From Rhodospirillales bacterium (GTDB lineage Bacteria; Pseudomonadota; Alphaproteobacteria; Bin95): DNA of 17,963 nucleotides. The notes under the pieces were generated by a model. The model did no database searches. It was not told the DNA's origin and was given only the letters and a program-made list of their open reading frames with translations. The position numbers and the translations under genes were made by a program. Positions 1 to 13,822 of the stretch are shown here, one piece after another (the stretch's first letter is position 1; each line of letters opens with the position of its first letter). The stretch lies in assembly GCA_038143065.1 (NCBI GenBank), contig JAYQLI010000037.1:1-17963 (forward strand). Reading direction: 5' to 3'.

Positions 1-724
1 AGGTTCATCGCCGGATCGTTCGATATTTCGGCAACACGGGTGTTTGCTGGGTTCTCAAAGATTTCGTGCGCGGGCCCCTGTTGCAGCACCCTACCCTCGT
101 CAAGAATGATGATATCACCACAAGCTGCATAGCTTCCAGAGGATCGGTGCTGGAATAAATCAGGATAGAGTTTGACGATACTTTGTCAGAAAGATATTGC
201 GGAATTCCTCACGAAGCTGCTCACGAAGCTTGTAGTCAAAGGTTAACCAAAGGTTCGTCCAACAACAAGATGCCGGCCTGTTTCGCCAGCGACCGGGCAA
301 GTGCCACACGTTGCTGCTGGCCGCCGGACAGAGCCTGAATTTTTCTGCCTTCGAAGCCAGTGAGGCCGACGCTCTCCAGTGAGTCCATCACCCGCCCTGA
401 TCACGCCTTCATCCATCTTCCGCTGGCGCAGCGGAAGGCGACACGTTGTCGAACACGGTCAAATGCGGATAGTTGATGAACTGTTGATAGACCATCGCGA
501 TGTTGCGTTCCCAGACCGGCACTTGGCCCAGATCTGGTCATCTAACATCATGCGGCCGCCTTCCGGCGTGATCAGCCCAGCAATTGTCTTCAGCAGGTGG
601 TCTTGCCGGATAATGTCCTCCCAAGGATGGTGTAGAGTTCACCTTTCTGCATGCCGAATGACACATCATTCAGGTGAAATTCGTCTTCTGGCTTGTAGGT
701 CAGCCCCTTTGCGATTAAATCCAT
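1..724 (-). CDS. Carbohydrate/polyol ABC transporter ATP-binding subunit (MalK/GlpS-like); 3' end runs off the window, frameshifted as read
   Basis: Manual translation across frameshifts: MDLIAKGL..., Walker [10 protein letters not shown]-loop [13 protein letters not shown], signature [13 protein letters not shown], Walker [10 protein letters not shown] and [11 protein letters not shown]. The variant H-loop region [13 protein letters not shown] resembles GlpS-type subunits. Confidence 0.9.
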
Positions 725-725
725 C

Positions 726-1584
726 TTACTTCAGTGCTCCAGACAAGTTCCCTTTCGACAGGAAACGTTCAACAATAAAGGCCACCACGATCGGCGCGAC
801 CGAGATCAATGCTGAGGCCGAAAGGCTCCACCAAGGCGTAATCGAGGAATTCAGGGCCACGATCCGCACCGGCAACAGCTGCACCTCGGTAAAAGTGAGG
901 ATGAAAGCGAAGAAGAAGTCAGTCCATCCAAAGATCAGGCAGAACATGCCGGCGACGATCATGCCAGGGATGGAGTTCGGCAGTACCACCTTGAAAAATG
1001 CCTGATAGGGGTTGCACCCATCTATCAGCGCCGTCATCGTCTATTTCACGCGGCACCTTGTTGAAAAAATCCACCATGATCCAGACGGCTATCGGCATCA
1101 GCAGCACGATATAAACCATTATCAGACCTACGGGAGTCGAGCCCAAGATAGCCAAGCATTATGAAGAACGGAATCGACAGCACCCACCGGCGGCAATACG
1201 CTGCGAGATAAAGAAAGAAGGTTATGTCGTTGTTCTTGATGAAGCCCGCCTTGAATGTAAAACGCGACAGGGCATAAGCCGCAGAGTGCCTAGCAGAATG
1301 CTGATCAAGACTGGCTGAACAGGTTACAATGATGCTGTTGAAATAAGGCTCAACGATATCGACCCTCCACTCGCCGGAGTCCGCCACAATACGCGCCAGC
1401 CTTCCAGCGTCGGTTCGAACTGTAACCAAGGGATAGGTAGCTCCGCTGGTCACCGACTGAAAATCCTTAAATGACGTTGACAGTGCCCAGAGGGAAAGGC
1501 GCCACCACAAATATCGACCAAATGCAGATGAAGCCGTATTTTAGGAATGTGTATAGATTTAGCATGGTCAGTCTGTTTGATCAT
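726..1584 (-). CDS. Carbohydrate ABC transporter permease (MalG-like), frameshifted as read
   Basis: Joined ORF pieces: YFNSIIVT, AYALSRF, LMPIAVWIMVDFFNKVPREID, ALIDGC (EAA loop), FFKVVLP, FGWTDFFFAFILT, ERFLSKGNLSGALK. Confidence 0.88.
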
Positions 1585-2426
1585 GACCACCAGAACCTTG
1601 GCAATGATGGTCAGACTGACGATCATAATAACAAGATAGGTGAAGGATAGTGCTGCAGAATAACCCATTTGAAATTCAGCGCAGACCCTTTATGAAAATA
1701 TAGAAACTAGATGTTTCCGTTGCCGTTCCAGTCCTCCAGATGTTAGAACATAGATCGTATCCATTATCTTTGAGGCTTCGATTAATCTTATAATGATCGC
1801 CCCAATTGATATGGGTGCCATTAGCGAAATGTGACATAGATAAATTTGCAGATCGGCCCTGCCCCGTCGATGGAGGCAGCAAGGAACGCCTCCTCAGGCA
1901 GTGACAATAATCCGGCGAGAAGCAGCAGGAACATGAACGGTGTCCACTGCCAGGTCTCGACAATAACCACCGTGACTTTTGCCAAGGTCTCGTCACTCAG
2001 CCACAGCGGAGTGATCTCGAACAAGCTGAGGAAATCATTCACCGGACCTAGAAGTTCATGAAATACCGTTTTCCAGATTACCGTCATGATGACCGGCGTT
2101 GTCATCATCGGGATAAGAACAGCACCGGAAAAACCGCTTGAGGCCAGATCGCGCCATACCATCAGCGCTAACGAGAAGCCAAGCACATATTGCAGAAACA
2201 CGGTGGTCAGTGACAGAAAACTCCCAGCCGGAAAAAGATTCCCAAAAACGTTTGTCTTCGGTGAACAATCGGACGTAGTTTTCAAGACCAATAAAATCCA
2301 GACCGGGATAGAAACTGTCCCAGCTCGACAGACTGAGCCTGATGGTAAAAGAATTGGGAAGATCAGGATCCCAATCAGCACCAGAAGGCCCGGCAGCAAG
2401 AAGATGTGTTTATGCCTGAAGTTCAT
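1568..2426 (-). CDS. Carbohydrate ABC transporter permease (MalF-like), frameshifted; 3' end approximate
   Basis: FLLPGLLVLIG, LIPMMTTPV, ETWQWTPFMFLLLLAGLLSLPEEAFLAASIDGAG (EAA loop), MGYSAALS. Confidence 0.88.
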
Positions 2427-2471
2427 AGCGAACCCTCAAATTCGGGTGTTTGAAATACGAAAAATGAACAT

Positions 2472-2499
2472 GGGTGACCGGCGGAGGGTCCGGTCACCC
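2472..2499. repeat. Intergenic inverted repeat between the binding-protein and permease genes (probable mRNA stabiliser or attenuator)
   Basis: GGGTGACCGG-N8-CCGGTCACCC, a perfect 10-bp stem 16 nt after the inferred binding-protein stop. This position is common in ABC operons. Confidence 0.7.
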
Positions 2500-2515
2500 G
2501 TTAATCAGCAGTTAG

Positions 2516-4050
2516 TTAAAGGTTGTCCTCAAGCGCAACGCCAACAGCAAGCTTCACGGACATTGTCTTTACCAACACGATTCAGGATTTTCTCCCACTC
2601 AGCGGCTACCTCATCTAGAGCCTCCTGTGGGCTCAGCTGGCCAGCGAGCGCCTTTGAAGTGCCGGTTGCCACCGCACTGGTAAACTGGAAGACACCAGGA
2701 CAGCGTAGCGGGAATACGCGGTTGGTGCTCTTCTCTTCCATGTCCAGCAAAGTCTGAGTGTATTCCTTGGCGATTTGCTCATCCCAGCCCTGACGCTCCA
2801 CATAAATGCTCGGAACGAAGTCAGACTTCTTAAACAGGTTCACACCGAAGCGGCCAATGGCAATGTCCAGCCTGGTGGTTTGCGTCATTCGAGAAGAAGC
2901 ATAGATAGTCGAACGCCATGTCGTGATTTTTTGACTTCTTGGCAACAGCCGCGGCCCAGCCCCAGACGATGTAAGGTGCCTGATTGAACTCTTTGTCCCA
3001 GTCACCCTTTATGCGGTTCCAGACGCGGTCCGAACCTGGAAGCGGCGCAGCGCCAACTTTGTTCTTGATCGGGCTGTCATCTTCCATGGCAGCAACGAAT
3101 GCATCGTCCCAAGAGAAGCTGAACAGGGTCTGTCCACCACCAAATGAGTTGATCTCGTCACCGAGGCCAAAATTGATGCCGCCCGGCGGCACATATTTGG
3201 TCGCCTCGACCCAGTCGGTGAGCGCCTCTACAAATCCCGGACCGTTGATAGAGGTGTCATAGTCTCGAGGTCAAGAAGAGATCCGCCCGGTGTACGGGGA
3301 TTCTTCCGAATAGGCGACCGAACGGCTAAGAACGCTGCATACATCAGGTCGTCCTTTTTCATGACCTCGGCCGAGCCGTACTCAAGCTCGCCGTCACCAT
3401 CCCAGTCCCAGCCATTGAAAAAGGCAGCGATCTCGCCATACTCTTTCCAGGTGCGCGGAACCCGCAGTTCCTTGCCTGTCTCGGCCTTGTACTTTTTCTG
3501 ATACTCGGGATTGTCGATTACGTCCTTGCGATACTTCCAGATAATGACGGTCACCATCAATCGGGAACTGGATCATCTGGCCGTCCCAGGAAGCCACGTC
3601 GATATGCGACTTGGTGACGTCCTGCATCTGTCGCATGTTGACGTAGTAGTCTGGCACTGGCTCCAGATACATCATCCAATCGCGGATGAAGTTGGAGAAG
3701 CCAAAGACGATGTCATAAGGTGCCTGGCCAGCCTGAAAGGGGACCATCGCCTTAGAGTAGAGGTCACCCGCCGGTGTGTGGATCACGTTGACTTCCGCAC
3801 CAGTGAGCTTGGCAAACTGCTCAGCATGGAGCGCGGTCGGTTCGCCCATAACAGGTACGGCGTGCGTGTTGATGGTAAGCTTTGCGTCCGCTATGATCTT
3901 TCTTCGACATTGACTCATAAGAACACTCGCCGGGGATATCACCAGTGTTTTTAATATGCGGAAACTGGTCGCTCCACTTGTCGGCCTGCACGGCGGTGGC
4001 GATGATCGACGCCCCACCACGATGCCTGTTGATAACACACTAAATTTCAT
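2516..4050 (-). CDS. Carbohydrate ABC transporter substrate-binding protein, frameshifted as read
   Basis: GGAGG RBS before ATG 4050, signal-like N-terminus, QFPIDGDRHY, YRKDVI, VPRTWKEY, FSWDDAF, GAAPLPGS, ALAGQLSPQEALDEVAAEWEKI. Reframed C-terminus VGVALEDNL*. Confidence 0.88.
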
Positions 4051-4092
4051 AGTTTCCTCCATATAATTTCCTGTGGATGAAAGGGGTCTAGA

Positions 4093-5140
4093 TTAAGGTA
4101 CAAGAGCAGCACGACCCCTTACGTCGCCGCTATTCAGGTCGTGCAAAGCCTTATTGGCCTCGTCGAGCCGGTATTCCTGCATCGACAATGTCACGAGCCC
4201 TTTATTTGCGAGCTCCATGAGTTCATAGAGTTCGGCCCAAGTGCCAACTAGATTGCCGACGATAGTCTTCTCGGAAATGATCATGTCCGGCGAGAACCTG
4301 AATTTCTTCGCCATATCCAACGCGATGTAGTAGAAACCACTATTGGCGGTCATGTTCAGGCCCTTGGTGGTTGAACCATGCTCACCGACGAAGTCGATGA
4401 CAGCTTCGGCGCCCTTGCTGTGGGTCAGTTCCATAACCAAATTCATGCTCGTTGCCGTCGATAGCACCCCTTGTCAGCACCAAGTTCGATGGCGTGCTTC
4501 AGGCGTTGGCAGATTTTTCGACAACGATGATGTCAGCGTCGCCATCAGACACTGGATCGCAATGTGACCGAGGCCACCGGCGCCAATAATGACACAAGCT
4601 TGCCCCGGCGGCAGATGGCGTGTTGCTTTTTTTACAACCCGATAGGCGGTAAGGCCAGCATCAGAGAATGGTGCAACATCCTTCGGCGTTAGAACTGATG
4701 GCAGTTTGATCAAGTTGCGGACACTTGTTTTCAGTAGCTCTGCATACCCACCTTCCTTAATGTTAAGACCGGAAGCACCATCTTCTGCATGCATGTCGTG
4801 ACCACCTGACGACATGAAAGGCATGTGCCATCTGTTCCAGAGATCAGCGGATGCAATATGACAGGGTCACCCTGCACCAAAACCTGTAACGTCCTTGCCA
4901 ACCTCTTCAACCCAGCCAGCGTTTTCATGCCCCATAACAGGCAGAAGCTTGTTGTCTGGGTCCTGAATATGACGCCAAACTCCCTCAATAATATGAAGGT
5001 CGGTACGACATACCCCTGCTGCACCAATCTTAACGATTACATCGGATGATTTTTCAATCTTTGGGTCAGGCATTTCGGCACCCTTTGCCAAACGATGTTT
5101 TCATCTCTGTATCGTACTCATAAAATGCTTGAGCTTTCAT
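4093..5140 (-). CDS. Zn-dependent NAD(P) alcohol dehydrogenase (MDR family), frameshifted as read
   Basis: GVCRTDLH, GHENAGWVEEVG, FSDAGLTAY, GAGGLGHIAIQ (Rossmann), VIDFVG, GDVRGRAALVP. Confidence 0.9.
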
Positions 5141-5206
5141 TTACTTCACCTTTCAACACTTTCTGAGTTGAGGTTGGTGACTTCAACAGTCATCAATTAC
5201 AGTTTA

Positions 5207-5254
5207 TGTTCAAAAAGGAGCAAAAAGGCCGAAATAGTGTTCAGTTTTTGAGCA
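5207..5254. promoter_or_regulatory. Two putative activator-binding sites in the divergent adh/regulator intergenic region
   Basis: TGTTCAAAAAGGAGCA (5207-5222) and TGTTCAGTTTTTGAGCA (5238-5254) are similar imperfect palindromes starting 31 bp apart. Confidence 0.45.
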
Positions 5255-5357
5255 GTGTGCTATGTTGTCAGATAATATTTGCTAGGATAACGTTCTTATG
5301 CTTGGTGGAAATAAGGTCTTAATATGTCGATGCGAACAGACATTGTGAGTGAAGACT

Positions 5358-7005
5358 ATGCGTTCGATATTCAGAAATTCAGGATCTTCAGAAAAAGGAG
5401 GTATGTTTTCTGCAATCTCCGACAGCTGGTCGCGTTGCCGTGAATTTGGACTACGCGCATTGGGAAACCCACAGAGGCAGTACTTAGCGACGAAAAATTC
5501 CGGTTGATATTGAGCAGAATGAGGGCGTTCGACATATAGTATTGCCTGAGCTGGAACTTCTGTATAACCAGATTGCCGGGCACTAATTTTATGGTTGCCT
5601 ATGCTGATAGCGATGGTGTGGTTCTTGATTCCATTCAGGATGATGATTTTCAAGCTGGCGAAGGTGGGAAAGCTGTAGTTCCTGGCTCTGTCTGGAAGGA
5701 AAGCCATCGAGGAACGAACGCTCTGGGCCTTGCCATACACAGCCGCCGTCCCGCTATTGTCGCCGGGCGCGACCATTTTTCAGGCTTGGTGACCTGTGTC
5801 ATGCTTTGCCGTGCCAATTTTCAACCATGAGAGCGATATTGTCGGCGTTATCGATGCTACATCAAACGCCAAGGCTCGTAACGAACACACTAGCCTTGGT
5901 CAAGCTAGCCTCTCGGAACATTGAAAACCGCCTTTTCGCCGAACAATTCTGCGACTCTTCGATTCTAATGTTCCACGCTCGCCATGAATACCTTCCAACA
6001 ACAAGCGTCGCGATGATTGCGTTGATGATTACGGCTTCATTGAAGGCGCAAATTACCAACGCAAAGTCTATGTTGAAGACGGTTTGAACTTAAACAGCAA
6101 ACAACATTTCAGCGAGGTATTTCAGGTCAAGTTTTCAGAAAATTATCGACCAGGCGCGGTCAAACGAGATTGTTCGTATCCGTGATAGCTAGGTTCATTT
6201 GTCTTTATGAAGGCGCAGCCTCCTGTCACGCGCCGCTTTGTCCAAGATGAGAGTGATTTCATCATCCACAATGGCCAACACCTTCTGGTAAGTGAGTAAT
6301 GCCAGCCCCAATAACCCGACGAGTGGATATGCCTCAAAGACCGACACGCGCCTTCCAGGGATGAGGTTTTGAAAAAGGAGATTGAATCAGCGGTCCGCTC
6401 ATTATCAATCGGACTACCTGTGGTTATTGAGGGGCGAGCCTGGTACCGGTAAAACTGAACTGGCCCGTGAATTTTCAATAAAACTTTTGATAATGGGGAG
6501 CCTAGCAGTAATTGATTGCCATGTTCTAACCGCAGAAAACTTCAAAAGCTATCTCTTTGGTGATGAGGGTATGATCAGTTTTTTGATCCTGATTCTGTAA
6601 AGAATTCCAAGGGCAAGCTTGCTCTCGCGCGCGGTGGTTGCATATTATTCCGAAACGCGCAAACGCTTGATAAGGAGATTCAGCAGCGGATTTCAGACGC
6701 AATGACCTTTGAAGAAGAGCGGCGGCGTGATGGCTTAACGCCAGTCATCACCGGCTGGTTTTTTGTCGGACCCCTATCATGGGTAGAGCACACCGATAAT
6801 GATATCATACCGGCATTCTCCAAAAGCATCAACGGAAAGACAGTAACGGCGCCACCACTATCGCATCGATCAGATTTTCAAAAGGTGGCTTCAGCTATCA
6901 TCGCTGATGTCTCGCAGAGCACTCCTTTCACCTGTTGCGCCGAGATCCTACAGGAGGGAGAACTGGCCAGGCAATTTGAAGCAAGATAGTTACATTCAGA
7001 TTTAG
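5358..7005 (+). pseudogene. AcoR-like GAF + AAA+ transcriptional activator, truncated before the C-terminal HTH
   Basis: DSWSRCREFGL, ADSDGVVL, GSVWKESHRGTNALGLA, ALVKLASRNIENRLF (AcoR GAF region), GEPGTGKTELA (Walker A), GKLALARGG. NWPGNLKQ (6961-6984) is followed by unrelated residues and TAG at 7003-7005. No Fis-type HTH follows. Confidence 0.8.
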
Positions 7006-7034
7006 GTATCAGTCTGTTCTCAGAAAACTTCAGT

Positions 7035-7057
7035 TTTGACACAGATTTGACACAGTA
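7035..7057 (+). repeat. Tandem arm-type integrase site, left copy
   Basis: TTTGACACAGATTTGACACAGTA (11-bp period), ending 13 bp before the integrase ATG; identical to 12450-12472. Confidence 0.85.
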
Positions 7058-7070
7058 AAAGGTCAAATCA

Positions 7071-8054
7071 ATGGGTTGTGTGCGTAAAAGAGGTAAGTCT
7101 TGGAATGCTCAAGTGAGGATTGCTGGATGGAGAAGTTTTACCAAATCATTCAAGTCAAAGTCAGATGCTGTTTTTTGGATTGCAGGAAACAGAACATCAA
7201 CTCAAGACAGTTACCTCTTCCAAGAGTGAATGTTGGTGAGATCACCTTAAAAGAGAACTTCTACAGACTTATCCCAAAGAAGTGTCGTTCAATTTGAAAG
7301 GTTCAGAAATAGAAACATACAAACTGAAATTATTCAAAACATCCGATTGCAGAGAACAAACTTGTTAATCTTACTCAACGCAAACATTTTGAATATCTTC
7401 GTGATGAGAGGTTAAAAGTTAAAGTCTGGAACTGTTCATGCAGACTTGATGATGTTTAGAAGAGTATTCAAAACTGCAATACACAAATGGGGATATGGAC
7501 TACCCAAAAACCCTGTTGAATATCTTCAACTACCATCACCTCACAAGTCTCGTAAACGCAGATTGATGCCTAGTGAAAAAGAACACCTCCTTACCGCTGC
7601 ATCATCACAACGCAATATCTACATCGCCTATATCATTGAGTTTGCGATTGAAACAGGTATGCGCCGTTCTGAGATACTGAAACTCCGATGGTGTGATGTT
7701 GATTTGGAGAATGGGTTTGCATCTCTTTATGACACCAAGAATGGTGAAGATAGACGAGTGCCTCTCACTAGAAGGTGCATAGAAGTTCTTCAGACGGTGC
7801 CTCATACTAATGAACAATTGTTCCCCATCTCTGCCACCTGTTTGCGTCTTGCATGGAACAGAGCACGCAATAAAGCAGGCATCACTGATTTACGGTTTTA
7901 TGACTTGAGACATGAAGCAGTTTCACGGATCTTTGAGATGGGAATGTCAGTTCCAGAAGTGGCACTAATATCTGGACATAAGGATGTAAGACAGTTGTTC
8001 AGATACACCCACTTGAACCCATCAAATGTGTTCAAGAAGTATGCGGCGTTCTAG
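7071..8054 (+). CDS. int: Tyrosine recombinase/integrase (Rci/HP1-like); N-terminal third frameshifted as read
   Basis: N-terminal arm-binding-like MGCVRKRGKSWNAQVRIAGW; catalytic motifs ETGMRRSE, DTKNG, FYDLRHEA, ISGHKDVRQLFRYTH. Confidence 0.92.
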
Positions 8055-8317
8055 AACAGTCCAGCGACATAGTGATAAATGCCATACACGATGACACAAA
8101 TCACCACGAGTATGATGAAGAGTGTTTGCAGGAAGTCATGCACTAGCGCTTTGACTAGTTGTTTGGTTTTGACTGAACCAAGGGCGAGATAACAAAGGAC
8201 TAATGACACTGGGAAAGAAAACCAAAAGACAGTTGAGACAATCCAGAACTTTATGAACCCCATATCCTTAAATGGATTTTCATCGTCATTTTTTATTATC
8301 TGGTTTTCGGTATTCAT
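8051..8317 (-). CDS. Small membrane protein with two hydrophobic segments
   Basis: Intact 88-aa ORF with FWIVSTVFWFSFPVSLVLCYLALG and LFIILVVICVIVYGIYHYV. Its stop overlaps the integrase stop. Confidence 0.7.
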   Translation of the reverse strand: MNTENQIIKNDDENPFKDMGFIKFWIVSTVFWFSFPVSLVLCYLALGSVKTKQLVKALVHDFLQTLFIILVVICVIVYGIYHYVAGLF

Positions 8318-8375
8318 AGAGGTGTCTCTATTGCATTTATAGATTAGAAAATCGTTATCAGTTTTGAGGGGTGTA

Positions 8376-8579
8376 TCATGATGCAGTCATAGACTGCAAA
8401 GTGTTCCTCTGTTTCCTCTGTGCAGTACTCTCTTGCATCTTCCTGTCACGAACCATCTTCAGTCCTTCGTTCACCATTGAGTTGATACTAGTAGTGGCAG
8501 CGTCCAACTCTTTAACTCTTTGGCAGTCCATCCAAAGGTTGTAGTCAATTCTTGCGGCGTAATCGTGAGTTATCTTCAT
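8376..8579 (-). CDS. Small protein, possible ribbon-helix-helix DNA-binding protein
   Basis: 67 aa. Strand-like HDYAARID, helix YNLWMDCQRVKEL and second helix SINSMVNEGLKMV fit the RHH pattern by eye. Confidence 0.5.
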   Translation of the reverse strand: MKITHDYAARIDYNLWMDCQRVKELDAATTSINSMVNEGLKMVRDRKMQESTAQRKQRNTLQSMTAS

Positions 8580-8718
8580 TCTTAATTTTCCTTTTCGGGA
8601 TTTTCCGTTGGTTTAGAAGATTCAGCAGGCGCCCAAAGAGTGGATTTGGTTCAAACCGTTTCTTACCTAACTGTTTACAGATTTTATCCCATGACAGTTC
8701 TGGTTTATCGTCTATCAC
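8545..8718 (-). CDS. Small basic hypothetical protein (57 aa, below the ORF track cutoff)
   Basis: GTG start overlaps the upstream stop (GTGA coupling). MIDDKPELSWDKICKQLGKKRFEPNPLFGRLLNLLNQRKIPKRKIKNEDNSRLRRKN*; overlaps the next ORF. Confidence 0.5.
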   Translation of the reverse strand: MIDDKPELSWDKICKQLGKKRFEPNPLFGRLLNLLNQRKIPKRKIKNEDNSRLRRKN

Positions 8719-8915
8719 TTTATCCCCCGCTGATTCCTATCCATCTGAGCGTTCTGTTCGCCCAGCAGCAATGTCTGTTGAGAAATCTCACCAAACATCT
8801 TCACCAGCACCTTTCGTGCGGCAATCTCATCTTTTGATTTGATGTATTCGTTACCGAGCGTGATGAGTTTCTTGCCCGATGCGTCTATGCGTTGTTTGAG
8901 TTGTTGTATGTCCAT
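8715..8915 (-). CDS. Small helical hypothetical protein, first gene of a three-gene operon
   Basis: Intact 66-aa ORF preceded by purine-rich AAAGGAACAGAGGT. Confidence 0.65.
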   Translation of the reverse strand: MDIQQLKQRIDASGKKLITLGNEYIKSKDEIAARKVLVKMFGEISQQTLLLGEQNAQMDRNQRGIK

Positions 8916-8943
8916 ACCTCTGTTCCTTTCAGAGGTATTTATA
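8914..8943 (-). promoter_or_regulatory. T4-type late promoter consensus TATAAATA overlapping a hairpin that sequesters the RBS/start
   Basis: Minus strand reads TATAAATACCTCTGAAAGGAACAGAGGTATG. The stem ATACCTCTG/CAGAGGTAT is perfect (9 bp) and includes GAGG and the AT of ATG. Confidence 0.55.
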
Positions 8944-9070
8944 TGAACTTTTAAAAATGACTTTGGAAAAGTCTAAAAATCAAATTTCTATGACACACAA
9001 ACACAAATTTTCCGTTATGTTGTATTTCGATCCCCTGCAATTTATCCACAATTTTGGTGTCATATTAAAA

Positions 9071-10101
9071 ATGAATAAGACGCAAGAGTCATCTTTGAGA
9101 GTGATAAGTCTGTTTTCTGGATGTGGTGGCATGGATTTAGGGTTTCAGAAGGAGGGTTATAAAATAATCTTTGCTAATGATATCGAACCTTCTGTTAAAG
9201 ACACCTATCAACATAACTTAACCCGAAATTAAAATTGCAGATATTCGAACTTTTAATAAGGCGGATATTCCTGAGGCAGAAATAGTAATCGCCGGCATAC
9301 CGTGCCAACCGTTTTCAAACGCAGGAAATCGGCAGTCGACAAAAGACACAGATGGCAACCTTTTTTTCAAGTTCTGGAGGTGAGGAACATCACATCCGAA
9401 AAGACCAAAGGTGGAAGTGTTTGAAAATTCAGAGGTTTTTTGTCATCTAAAGACGAAAACGGGATATTGTTGACTGACCGCTTTAGCGCTGAAATTGAGA
9501 CAACTTGGTTACTCTACGTTTTTCAAACTTCTAAATGCATCAGATTTTGGCGTTCCCTCTAACCGATATCGTGTGTTTATTGTTTGTGTCTTGACTGAAA
9601 AGAAAAAGATTTTGTTTTCCAGAACCTAATGAAAAAATCAGACCTAAAACTGTGGGGGCAATAATTAACAAAAAATTACCACACAACGAAGTTCAAGAAG
9701 TTTGGAATTTGCCTCCATCTTCAAGGCGTATAATTGGTTTCATTCCTGAGGGCGGTTCTTGGAAAAACATACCAGATGAAAAATTAAGTGAACGCTTCTT
9801 GAAGATTCGGCAAAATCCAAAGAAATATCGTGCGCCAAATTTTTATCGGCGTTTTGCCCGTAATGAAATAATGGGAACAGTAACCGCACGAACATCCTCA
9901 CCTGAAAATAGTGGGATTTTGCATCCGTTGGAAGATCGTAGGTATTCTGTGAGAGAAGTCGCACGATTTCAAAGTTTTCCCGACAGTTTTAAATTTCTGG
10001 GAAACAATGTAAGCGCAAAGTATAAAATGATTGGCAATGCCGTCCCACCATCTTTAGCGCAGGTAATAGCAAAGGCAATTAAAGATCAATTTTTCTGTTG
10101 A
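9071..10101 (+). CDS. DNA cytosine-5 methyltransferase, frameshifted as read
   Basis: Motif I SLFSGCGGMDLGF, ANDIE, motif IV AGIPCQPFSNAG, motif VI FEN, motif VIII FGVPSNRYRVFIV, motif IX RRYSVREVARFQSFPD, motif X YKMIGNAVPP. Confidence 0.93.
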
Positions 10102-10661
10102 AGTATCCACTGTTTTGCAGTTCAATTATTTCAACATCATCGTCAAATCTTCCCATCCCAGTGTTGCAACTGTCACAAACATACCCCCTAGGTTCACCTG
10201 TTTTATGGTTGTGCTCTAGAACAATTCTGCTCATGCCCACAATGCTTGTTTTTTCACAAATAGGTCATTGAAATAACTCATATTTCTCAGGTTTTCTTTT
10301 TTCCCATGTCTTTTTCAGAGCATCAAACAAGAGCCTTTCCATCTTTTTCTAATCTGCAACCTACAAGATGGTCTTTTTTAATCTTGTTATCTTTTTTCGC
10401 CGATTATTTTCAAAATTCACATCGGTTGCAAGCAAGCGGAAACACCGATCACAAATTTTATTTTGATAATCATCACCACATTTTGTTACGTCAAAAAATT
10501 CAACTTCGTCACGATTGAACTCATATGCTTTGTTTACTCGTGGAAATTGTATCAAGATTGTGTTGTGGCGATCTGTTGTAACAAGACCAATCTCACTCTG
10601 CTTTAGAGTTATGTCACCTAACTGTTTTGTCTCGCACTTTAATCTCATCATACCGTGGCAT
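10086..10661 (-). CDS. Hpy99I-family type II restriction endonuclease (beta-beta-alpha-Me, Zn-binding), frameshifted as read
   Basis: KICDRCFRLL, FENNR, RPSC, PICEKTSIVG, IVLEHNHKTGEPRGYVCDSCNTGMGRFDDD. Convergent with and overlapping the MTase 3' end; GGAG RBS before ATG 10661. Confidence 0.8.
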
Positions 10662-11238
10662 ATCAACTGCTCCAAGAACATTGCAATCCAACGTTAGCAA
10701 TTAATATTTTTAATTGGTAGAAATTTACTTTCCTAACGAGAACTACACCATCTTAAACAATGCCAACCTTAACCTATCTGTTGAAATTTAATGTCCTGTT
10801 TTTGGGCAAACTCTTTTTCGCACTCCTTTTTTTAGGGAGTATAATGAATAGAGCACGCCAAGTTTTTGGCAACGGTTGGATGTAGCAACAGAGTATCTCA
10901 ACGGAAATTACATTGCTGCACTTTATCTGTTGCTAATGATCGTAGCGATAATCAGCAAGATCTGAACTCGTTTGGAAAACTTCAAAAACTGTTCAAAGTC
11001 TGGATGCCCTTTTCAACAAACCCATGATGACTTGCTTCATCTTGGGTGGAAATTGGGAGCGCCAACCAAGGGTTATCTTTTTCCAATTTACTGTTTGTTG
11101 CAAGAGCAGGTTTTAATGGATTTCTTGTTTTCACTGAAAAATTGAGTTTTAGAATTCTCAACCCCCTCTGACTTCATTTTGATATAACCCATACCAGAAC
11201 AGTCAAAGCGCACTGGTCGGTGATTGCTCGAGGTTTAA

Positions 11239-11769
11239 TCACCACAAATCTGGTTTAGATAGTGCAGAGACACACTCAAACTGGATTGGTTGTTCTGGAA
11301 CAGGAGTGTCATCCAACATCATACCTGTCCAACCAAATGGATATTGCAATGTGTATGGCGGCAGGAATGAGTGTCCAATCTCTTCTTTGAACCCAAACCG
11401 TCCATAGTAGGCAGGGATCTCCATAAACCATTAGAACACCAACACCATCTTGGGTGAGCATATCTATTCCAGATTGATGAGGTTTGAACCAACACCTTGT
11501 TTCTGATGTTCTGGAGACACAGCAAGTGGAGCAAGAATATATCCAAGATACTAGAGTCAGATTTCAAGAAAGATTGGACTGTAGGACACATAACCAATTA
11601 CTTGATTATCAACTTCAGCAACTAATGACTTGATTGAGGGACTGGTGGTTTCTTGATGGAGTTCTTGAACAAGGTTCATGATGACTTTGTTCTCTTCATC
11701 AGAAAACGCAGTTTCAATAACCTTTAGGATTGAGTCCAAATCTGTTTCTTGAGCAAGTCTAATATCCAT
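11239..11769 (-). CDS. GNAT N-acetyltransferase (YhbS-like), frameshifted as read
   Basis: MDIRLAQETDLDSI, SLVAEVDNQVIGYVSYSPI, LAPLAVSPEHQKQGVGSNLI (acetyl-CoA motif), PAYYGRFGF. Confidence 0.88.
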
Positions 11770-11797
11770 AATCAATCTATAACTTAATTCTGAATCC

Positions 11798-11835
11798 TCA
11801 TCCACCTGTGGTGGATGAATGCACCGAAGGTGCAT
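11798..11835. repeat. Two abutting perfect hairpins with 3-nt loops
   Basis: TCATCCACC-TGT-GGTGGATGA (11798-11818) immediately followed by ATGCACC-GAA-GGTGCAT (11819-11835). Confidence 0.75.
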
Positions 11836-11908
11836 GGTCCAGATTGAAATGAAATCAAGATAAGGACTAGCGAACAAAGTAATCCTTATTCATCACTTAC
11901 ATAGTAAT

Positions 11909-12325
11909 TTATAAGGATTGTTGGACATTTTGGACAGTCCAACCAAAATAATTTACCTCATGTTCAGTGAAGAGTTTCTTCAACTCATCTTGGTTAGATT
12001 TCTTCTCTTCAATTTTGGATATTGATTTTGGTGCAACAAACTGAACCTGTCTCAATCCAACACCTTCATCCTTGCAAAGAGTTGTTTTGGATAGAACTGG
12101 TGTCTGAAATCATCTTCTTCATTCACCTCATTGCATCTCTCAATCATCTTCCTCAGCGTCCAGTGTGGGAATGGTTTACCTTGTTGATTGGTTAAACCTC
12201 TGCGATTGAGTGCATCAGCAAGTTCTTCAAAATCAGAAATTGGTTCAGCATCTGGATTGTCAAAATGTTCAGTGAGGATAGACACCATCTCTCTGAATAT
12301 CTTTTTATACTTGTTTCTTGTTCAT
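11909..12325 (-). CDS. Small putative DNA-binding protein next to the right att region; probably frameshifted, ends approximate
   Basis: FEELADALNRRGLTNQQGKPFPHWTLRKM resembles the 'IAxxLNxxGxxTxxGxxW' winged-helix motif of recombinase-associated domains. An alternative frame continues VGLRQVQFVAPK...QQSL* to 11909. Confidence 0.55.
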
Positions 12326-12449
12326 TTCTTCATCTCGTTAAAAACAGATAAGAAAGACAGCGGCAGCGTATTCTTTCAAACCTTCTTCAATTCTATTTAT
12401 GTGTCCATTGATTTTGATATGAAGAATGTGGGTTTTACGCACTCAGAAC

Positions 12450-12472
12450 TTTGACACAGATTTGACACAGTA
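12450..12472 (+). repeat. Tandem arm-type integrase site, right copy
   Basis: TTTGACACAGATTTGACACAGTA, identical to 7035-7057, 65 bp before the tRNA fragment. Confidence 0.85.
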
Positions 12473-12537
12473 GACCATTCAGATATACTGAATCAGAGAG
12501 AAAAAATCTGTGAAAAAATAAGCGTTTTCAATATATT

Positions 12538-12599
12538 GCTGGATAGAGCACAGACTACGAATCTGGGGGTCGGGAGTTCGAATCTTCCCGAGCGCGCCA
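12538..12599 (+). tRNA. 5'-truncated tRNA-Arg(ACG), att-site copy
   Basis: GCTGGATAGAGCA-CAGA-CTACGAA-TCTGG-GGGTC-GGGAGTTCGAATCTTCC-CGAGCGCGCCA: anticodon ACG at 12557-12559, T-arm and CCA present. The 5' acceptor strand and 5' D-stem strand are replaced by TTTTCAATATATT. Confidence 0.88.
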
Positions 12600-12671
12600 T
12601 TTTCCATTCTGACACCCGCAGAAAATAACGCGTTTCAGCCTGTTCGCTTCATCGCGGGCGTACAAATGGTC
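12583..12671 (+). repeat. Left arm of ~90-bp inverted repeat (tRNA 3' end + 59 bp + part of arm site)
   Basis: 12583-12658 matches the reverse complement of 14346-14421 at 75/76 positions. ACAAATGGTC (12662-12671) matches 14332-14341 in reverse. Confidence 0.93.
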
Positions 12672-12678
12672 GTACATT

Positions 12679-13822
12679 ATGACGAAGGTATCTGCGCCTT
12701 ACCTATACCGGAAACGCGGTATTTACTATCTTCAGAAACGCATCCCAAAGCCTCTGATCCCAAAATATGGGCGATCAATTCTCCAGCGGTCGCTTCGAAC
12801 AACTAATCGGGCTGACGCGGTTAGGCTGTCCAGTTCCATCGTCTCTTCACTTGAGCGTGAATGGCAAGCTTTACTTTTCGATATACCAAACACGTCTGCT
12901 TCCGCTTTTTATCACCTGACATCAGGGCAGCAGCACGAGCCATTGCTAACAGAAGCAATGCAGCTTTATCTGAAAGATGGCGGGAAGGATCTGGATTTCA
13001 GATTATGCCAAGCCACAAACACGGTCATAAAAAGTGTTGTTAGTTTGGTTGGCGATAAAACGTTATCAGCATACTCACGAAACGATGCGCTCCGGTTTAG
13101 AGACACATTGGTCGCCAGAGGCGTCTCTCAAGCAACAGTCAAACGTCATTTTGCACGCCTCAGAGCTATATGGAATTTTAGCGCTCGGGAACACGGCATC
13201 ATGACAACCAACCCATTTGCGAATATGAACCTTGGAGGCGGTAAGGTGCCGAGGAAGCGGCGCCCAATTCCAACTGAGAGCATCTTCAACATACAAACAC
13301 TATGTAGCGAGATCGACGATGACATGCGCTGGATTGTTGCCACTATATCAGATAGTGGAATGCGGCTCGCAGAGGTAATAGGCCTTCAAAAGGATGATCT
13401 GAGCCTTGATGTTGAGATACCGTTTTTGCGGCTCTCAGAGCATCCGTGGAGGCGCTAAAAACATCAACCAGCAAGCGTGATGTACCCCTAGTTGGCGCGG
13501 CTCTGTGGGGTTTAAAAAGGGCTTTAGATGAGGCAGAAGGCCCACTGCTTTTTCCGCGCTATTGCATCTTAGAAAACAACAAGGCCAATTATGCCAGCGG
13601 TGCGTTAAACAAGTGGCTAAAAGCATATGTGCCTGATGGTTGTGTTGTGCATTCGTTCAGACATAGTTTGCGAGACAGGTTGCGAGCAGCAGAATGTCCA
13701 AGTGACATAATCGATCAAATTGGGGCTGGCAGACAGCTGGTATTGGGCAGCGTTATGGCAAAGGGTATGAGTTAGATATACTCCATAATTGGCTTAAAAA
13801 AGGCTGTAAGCAATCATACTAA
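12679..13822 (+). CDS. int: Tyrosine recombinase/integrase with DUF6538-like N-terminus; two frameshifts as read (about 13455 and 13725)
   Basis: YLYRKRGIYYLQKRIPK...SLRT, DSGMRLAEVIGL, LKTSTSKRDVPL, HSFRHSLRDRLR, reframed WQTAGIGQRYGKGY. The R-K-HxxR-W-Y set is complete. Confidence 0.92.

Follow-up and report, generated by a model that had tools for sequence, protein, structure and literature searches.

The stretch analysed here (the window) is the entire contig JAYQLI010000037.1 of a Rhodospirillales bacterium (assembly GCA_038143065.1), which is 17,963 nucleotides (nt) long and belongs to a genome of 4.6 Mb in 52 contigs. On its minus strand lies a group of small open reading frames (ORFs) headed by ORF1, whose start codon is taken up in a hairpin, and the 5' side of this hairpin is overlapped by the octamer TATAAATA, the sequence of the late promoters of phage T4. 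Judging by its genes and ends, the element that carries these genes is a ~5.4-kb tRNA-Arg-type integrative island of marine Alpha- and Gammaproteobacteria. A previous sequence-only reading of this DNA had proposed a T4-style late switch, that is, a promoter for the late sigma factor of an infecting phage, placed within a hairpin that keeps read-through transcripts untranslated. Our comparison with relatives supports this proposal in part: the motif is conserved, the covariation of the stem agrees with it weakly, and the argument from read-through silencing is weak. We consider it probable that the box within a translation-masking hairpin is a promoter design; that the promoter in the masking hairpin is read by a T4-type late sigma factor is a tentative proposal.

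The octamer was found at the place described by the sequence-only reading, overlapping the 5' arm of a hairpin with a stem of 9 base pairs (bp), and the 3' arm contains GAGG (8920-8917) as well as the A and the T of the ATG of ORF1 (8915-8913). The inner stem stands as it was given, and the whole stem is longer than had been stated, since the GTTCA that precedes the box pairs with the TGGAC that begins within the start codon. In the window this pairing leaves TATAAA as the bulge of a two-part stem and, as the 5 nt preceding the box (ATCCA) pair with UGGAY of the start region, the octamer can generally be described as the bulge of a two-part hairpin. The hairpin has an energy of -12.3 kcal/mol (z -4.58), and none of 200 dinucleotide shuffles was as stable. 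According to the T4 rule, where the box occupies -13 to -6, the predicted transcription start is G8930, and the RNA from 8930 onward folds with only -0.7 kcal/mol. Both 5' arms are located at the box or upstream of it, and by this geometry the box's own predicted transcript would lack them. The AUG and the spacer are in the stem, and the likely Shine-Dalgarno site, to judge from its position and from its retention in relatives (those with a 14-nt loop included), is the AAGGA of the loop, 8 nt 5' of the ATG. The octamer alone is not significant, because 0.32 matches to TATAAATA are expected in the window, which has 1, and a match also turned up in 57 of 200 shuffles; ATAAAT is not enriched either (12 against 12.3 expected). 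Octamer and hairpin together recur ahead of homologous genes at other loci.

Table 1. Positions of the features of the cassette and of the island within the window
Feature	Positions	Strand	Description
Octamer TATAAATA	8943-8936	minus	promoter-like box, read from sequence
Outer 5' arm GTTCA	8948-8944	minus	pairs with TGGAC 8914-8910 in the minimum-energy fold; ATCCA in most relatives
Inner hairpin	8938-8914	minus	ATACCTCTG (8938-8930), loop AAAGGAA (8929-8923), CAGAGGTAT (8922-8914)
ORF1	8715-8915	minus	66 amino acids (aa), predicted helical hairpin, no known family
ORF2	8545-8718	minus	57 aa, GTG start, doubtful gene within a 149-nt insert (8581-8729)
ORF3	8376-8579	minus	67 aa, predicted single long helix, no known family
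Sister module	8341-8316	minus	TATAAATG (8341-8334) and hairpin ATAGAG/CTCTAT (8331-8326 with 8321-8316)
88-aa protein with hydrophobic stretches	8051-8317	minus	membrane protein by eye; in 12 loci; no Pfam match above the cut-off
Third octamer CATAAATA, then GAATTGAA	12401-12394	minus	upstream of the HTH_62-like gene
Recombinase-like helix-turn-helix (HTH) protein gene	12052-12288	minus	PF20552, E 0.007, below the cut-off; 5' end shortened compared with 140-aa relatives
Tyrosine integrase	7071-8054	plus	PF00589, E 5e-28, for 7446-8054; frame broken in the first third
23-nt direct repeat, left	7035-7057	plus	two TTTGACACAG units
23-nt direct repeat, right	12450-12472	plus	5415 nt from the left copy; beside the same gene in L018 too
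tRNA-Arg(ACG) 3' fragment	12538-12599	plus	attachment-site remnant; matches the tRNA-Arg region of L015
Cytosine-5 DNA methyltransferase gene, split in two frames	8957-10101	plus	PF00145 on 8957-9232 and 9652-10101; divergent from ORF1

Regarding the conservation of the box, we used 86 ORF1 starts with at least 50 nt of upstream sequence, which gave 70 distinct contexts; the duplicates within the window's own genome (L001, L002) and the decayed copies of genome G038 (L003-L008) had been left out of the 86. The motif N(A/C)TAAATA stands at the same place in 64 of the 70 contexts, so that the first check suggested by the sequence-only reading, conservation of the motif in homologues, was largely positive. 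The octamers belong to two classes, NATAAATA in 44 contexts and NCTAAATA in 20. The individual forms were TATAAATA (33 contexts), CCTAAATA (17), CATAAATA (11), TCTAAATA (2) and ACTAAATA (1), besides five other forms found once each and one context with none. When the contexts were anchored on TAAATA with at most one mismatch, 66-69 of 69 had retained each position of TAAATA, while no position more than 8 nt upstream of it was conserved in more than 47 of 69; this difference is partly due to construction because the anchor demanded TAAATA. More telling than this count are the divergent ORF1 genes (65-83% aa identity), which retain ATCCATATAAATA despite a changed leader behind the box. The similarity between loci starts sharply at the box and the sequence upstream is unrelated; at the -35 distance no conserved sequence was found across the contexts.

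Directly 5' of the box stands a pentamer that reads ATCCA in 30 of 69 contexts; in 41 of 69 at least four of its five positions pair with UGGAY, compared with 8% of control pentamers. In the inner stem, 93.6% of the cells are paired among the 26 distinct rows of the main group. In divergent relatives that do not have the main hairpin, the ribosome site or the AUG region is paired with other arms, located at or upstream of the box. Thus, in the L062 type TACTTC pairs with GAAGTA and ATCCATAT with ATATGGAT (-14.5 kcal/mol, 0/200 shuffles), L012 and L080 have the arms CTAATCC and GGATTAG, and in L070, L079 and L084 the arms are located upstream of the box. Compared with a shuffled 5' part, the ribosome site was more strongly masked in L070 (0/100), L084 (2/100), L095 (3/100) and L062 (6/100), whereas in L079 the masking was not above that control (66/100).

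As for the polymerase that would read the box, the -10 box of sigma-70 promoters requires A at -11 and T at -7, and no hexamer within TATAAATA or CCTAAATA offers both. A sigma-70 promoter with a -35 element was also considered and dropped, as there was no fit at a spacing of 16-18 nt. The same cassette might nevertheless have another reader, as a -10-only promoter for the host polymerase, for a factor of the island or for a factor of another phage type, with the hairpin insulating translation from stray RNA at the border between cargo and core. This is a possibility that we hold as rather doubtful. The island is located in bacterial chromosomes, ORF1-ORF3 sequence was found in RNA libraries of four studies, no gp55 gene occurs among the island ORFs scanned, and TATAAA agrees with a -10 box in five of six positions; all this would suit such a reader. 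The invariant part is TAAATA and not TATAAT, however, and C stands at -12 in 20 of the 70 contexts, none of which combines A at -11 with T at -7; moreover, there is neither a TG extension nor a conserved -35 element, and a sigma-70 scan made no call at the site.

The T4-type late promoter, which is read by gp55 together with gp33 and the gp45 clamp, suits the box better. According to PMC1524935, the T4 late promoter TATAAATA covers -13 to -6, with a T at -13 that is poorly conserved in relatives, and the late-promoter motif of phage Aeh1 is CTAAATA, starting at -12. The two classes of marine and Aeromonas T4-like late promoters are the same as those of the island family, NATAAATA and the CTAAATA type. 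In the first 50 kb of the pelagimyophage HTVC008M (L100) we found 10 boxes located 6-7 nt 5' of annotated start codons, namely TATAAATA five times, GATAAATA twice, ACTAAATA twice and TCTAAATA once, which makes 7 of class NATAAATA and 3 of class NCTAAATA; therefore, both classes of the island family are used by one marine T4-like phage. There are also differences. With its boxes 6-7 nt before the ATG, HTVC008M would start its late RNAs at or next to the AUG and these would be leaderless, whereas the island has a 15-nt leader with a ribosome site; and the base before the C at -12 is A or T in the phage but mostly C in the island family. Altogether, by its sequence the box appears to fit T4-type late promoters, in both known variants, better than any host promoter type tested.

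The placement of such a promoter within a hairpin is described in PMC2988022 for the T4 genes e, soc, I-TevI, I-TevII, I-TevIII and segB and for mobE of Aeh1. As in these genes, an 8-bp box of the TATAAATA type stands without a -35 element and the predicted own transcript lacks the 5' arm. Unlike them, the cassette lies in a bacterial integrative island and not in a phage genome; its stem covers the spacer and the AUG, with the likely Shine-Dalgarno site in the loop; and the genes upstream mostly point away, with no late sigma factor encoded nearby.

The mechanism that we propose is the following. The site would be the conserved head of a core operon, formed by ORF1, ORF3 and the gene of a small membrane protein, in an island that targets tRNA-Arg genes. 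The N(A/C)TAAATA box, which has no -35 element, would form a bulge in the 5' arm, and the 3' arm would cover the spacer and the start codon of ORF1. An RNA starting at G8930 would be without the 5' arm, leaving the Shine-Dalgarno site and the AUG open, while a longer RNA would fold and hide the AUG. The late sigma factor of an infecting T4-like myovirus would then switch on the core operon and a second unit, that of the third octamer, and the island, as a satellite or as a defence, would be an element that responds to phages. As to the role itself, it is possible, but for us still doubtful, that the island is tuned to T4-like phages in one of these two ways. With the same reserve we suggest that the island family might be plugged into the late programme of T4-like myoviruses, the two box variants tracking the two late-promoter classes, and the small coiled-coil proteins, the membrane protein and the recombinase-like regulator either hijacking the phage or aborting the infection.

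A further link with T4-like phages is offered by the single contig with an ORF1 relative that we found in a viral collection (L098). It has 10,388 nt with an exact terminal overlap of 123 nt, which suggests a 10.3-kb circle or a concatemer, and its ORF1 is accompanied by CCTAAATA. The contig also encodes a large serine recombinase across the junction, a small resolvase, a GIY-YIG nuclease and a clamp-loader gene similar to gp62 (phrog_225, E 3e-20; Pfam PF16790, E 0.001, below the cut-off). A tblastn search with the gp62-like gene matched 536 phage records, which by organism name included 361 of Synechococcus, 65 of Vibrio and 60 labelled Cyanophage, and 14 of the 15 best rows listed were annotated as a clamp-loader subunit.

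Several observations weigh against a late promoter inside a masking hairpin. The covariation of the stem is weak, with 1 double change that compensates, 6 G-U changes and 15 unpaired cells, and 21-43 of 500 shuffles reach the covariation values observed; the second check suggested by the sequence-only reading, a covarying stem in homologues, was thus weakly positive. In the main group the window around the ribosome site was no less accessible than the control (0.44 vs 0.38-0.42). Under the spacing rules of Shine-Dalgarno sites a distance of 1 nt to the ATG is too short, and for this reason GAGG, 1 nt from the ATG, is not such a site. Regarding the orientation, of 51 contexts 43 have an upstream neighbour on the opposite strand and 7 have one on the strand of ORF1; because of these divergent neighbours read-through RNA into ORF1 is not expected, and the idea that read-through transcripts need silencing is weak. 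Most copies are ~95% identical in DNA, so part of the conservation may reflect recent spread. Among the contigs from RNA libraries, one ends at 8930 and two at 8941, and others extend upstream into unlike sequence. We know of no T4-like phage for most of the named hosts. The gp62-like gene is a single case, and a search for it among the other loci turned it up only in L009/L039, which are one contig. The octamer of the sister module described below ends in G, and ORF2, which the sequence-only reading had counted in the operon, is poorly supported as a real gene by its homologues, so that we treat it as doubtful.

We had also considered taking the transcription start from the ends of the RNA-library contigs, and dropped this since contigs cannot show starts and those found here end where the similarity between loci stops. 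Similarly, the zero contig depth over 8581-8729 and past 8950 is no evidence of silence.

Box and hairpin have a smaller counterpart further along the minus strand, the sister module, in which the hairpin holds the A and the T of the ATG at 8317 (-5.5 kcal/mol, z -2.2), where the 88-aa protein begins. This module is kept in ~30 loci, in some of them without a gene behind it. In addition, 4 loci (the window, L015, L018 and L044) have CATAAATA before the HTH_62-like gene, which closes the island on its far side; it is followed by TGAA four bases on in the window and L018 (NNNN) and two bases on (TC) in L015 and L044.

Two other explanations of the site deserve attention. It seems improbable to us that its role is at the DNA level, as an operator for the small helical proteins or as a joint for cargo exchange comparable to the promoter-stem-loop units of T4-type phages. 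Such a role would agree with the sharp stop of the similarity between loci at this point, with unrelated cargo upstream, with the many metagenome contigs that break within ~100 nt of the site, with truncated extra copies 0.6-1.8 kb apart in several loci and with the decayed G038 copies between Sel1-repeat genes. Nevertheless, the left arm has a 6-nt insert with respect to the right arm, which would be odd for a symmetric operator, and 6 of the changes that affect one side of the stem leave a G-U pair, a sign of RNA of the minus strand. ORF1 and ORF3 are modelled as plain helices without a DNA-binding fold and, as far as recombination at a joint is concerned, this is compatible with the promoter and would not replace it. 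Finally, an intrinsic terminator for transcription of the opposite strand from the integrase side, with TATAAATA as the complement of its U-rich tail, is very unlikely: the plus strand does have the stem and then TTATATGA (TTTATATGG in relatives), and the sister module, in the same orientation, abuts the stop of the integrase with no gene behind in several loci (L015-type) and follows a methyltransferase gene in L096 and L099, a placement behind gene ends that fits a terminator or a cassette joint, but a terminator scan of 6900-12700 made 4 calls and neither site was one of them, 4 of the 8 nt of the tail are T, a U-tract would not require its A positions to be fixed although TAAATA persists in 66-69 of 69 contexts, and in the window no gene of the plus strand ends near 8914.

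Returning to the genes behind the putative late promoter, the three overlapping small frames were found as the sequence-only reading had listed them, and its three-gene operon is better read as a conserved pair, ORF1 and ORF3, with a poorly supported insert, ORF2, and the gene of the membrane protein following downstream. ORF1 has 286 homologues, with identities of 78-95% among the 120 matches listed, mostly from marine metagenomes, and ORF3 has 239, whereas for ORF2 there was 1 homologue among 5.8 billion proteins. The common form lacks the segment 8581-8729, i.e. most of ORF2, so that in relatives ORF1 and ORF3 overlap directly, and RNA-library contigs of three runs jump from 8580 to 8730, skipping the insert. 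The AlphaFold2 models predict two helices for ORF1 (predicted local distance difference test, pLDDT, 93) and a helix over residues 3-66 for ORF3 (pLDDT 90). We had also thought of ORF3 as a ribbon-helix-helix protein and dropped it, because the model is a single helix. Pfam and PHROG searches with ORF1, ORF2 and ORF3 gave no family, and Foldseek of the ORF1 model against viral and PDB libraries returned generic helical hairpins only, none with E <= 0.001. No relevant match was found for the ORF1 protein against phages and against plasmids, nor for the DNA against phages.

Regarding the island, between the repeats there are the integrase, the 88-aa protein, the small ORFs, the split methyltransferase and further small genes. 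An intact integrase relative of 326 aa is present in L034. ARAGORN found no whole tRNA in the window, and relatives of the island adjoin intact tRNA-Arg genes; Rfam gave no family in the window at gathering scores. Since the window has no whole tRNA, the junction on the integrase side is rearranged or misassembled, i.e. the left junction of this island is rearranged or chimeric. By homology with L015, the island reaches ~50 nt to the left of the repeat (6984-7034), where no tRNA gene follows, unlike in L015 and L018.

ORF1 was found in genome contigs labelled SAR116, other Alphaproteobacteria, Cellvibrionaceae and the isolate IMCC14465, and relatives of it are encoded in 109 metagenome stretches, 80 of which were retained. 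In the cultured isolate to which locus L014 belongs, the cassette comes with a shortened ORF1. The decayed copies L003-L008 (G038, C1:787-793 kb) are internally deleted heads of ORF1-ORF3 with the box CCTATATA and a stem CAC/GTG; they alternate with Sel1-repeat genes of the opposite strand in a 2-Mb genome of another family. A tRNA-like 3' piece with the T-loop GGTTCAAATCC, which is not tRNA-Arg, separates a shortened ORF1 from the sister module in L015 (~6200-6254), L066, L068, L072-L074, L077 and L092, and suggests tandem or nested insertions from another host.

Other observations concern the rest of the window. A segment of ~80 nt at 11157-11240 looks noncoding and is 87-95% identical in L009 and L013; in L034 a segment of this type is fused directly behind a truncated copy of ORF1. 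In 1-6900 and 12679-13775 many genes appear broken up into short frames, among them genes similar to transporters and dehydrogenases; another integrase, with the domains DUF6538 and Int_N, is split at ~13450. These broken frames mean either a pseudogene-rich genome or an indel-rich assembly.

It is also worth comparing the island with known mobile elements. It resembles the tRNA-targeting islands with tyrosine integrases, as it combines direct repeats and an integrase with the 3' part of a tRNA-Arg gene at one of its ends. Unlike them, it is very small, its core genes have no known family, and in the window no intact tRNA stands at the integrase end. The satellite P4 is switched on by the late regulator Ogr of its helper P2. 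With P4 and the marine satellites VEIMEs and PICMIs the island shares the small size, an integrase together with an attachment site, the lack of capsid genes and, in L098, a possibly circular relative in a viral collection. One module of the VEIMEs is rich in methyltransferases and YwqK-like antitoxins, according to PMC9618062. In the island family there is likewise a methyltransferase-type cargo, and an ORF of L034 appears YwqK-like by eye. The difference from satellites is that the ten window ORFs scanned include no gene for replication, for packaging or of the AlpA type; among the recurrent neighbour families scanned we found no replication or packaging-hijack family, and the gp62-like gene was seen in one relative only. 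In the literature on gp55 or late promoters in connection with satellites or chromosomal islands, within a coverage that leaves out most subscription journals, we found no host island or satellite keyed to the late sigma factor of T4-like myoviruses.

T4-like myoviruses are among the most abundant marine viruses. If the proposed reading is true, N(A/C)TAAATA inside a hairpin that masks the start codon would be a signature in the DNA of host genes that respond to T4-like phages, and it would open a way into the satellites or defences of those pelagic bacteria that are beyond present genetics. Furthermore, the two box variants would be a readable record of the phage lineage to which each island is tuned. 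If it is false, the cassette is still a well-defined and widespread regulatory joint for cargo swaps in a very small mobile island.

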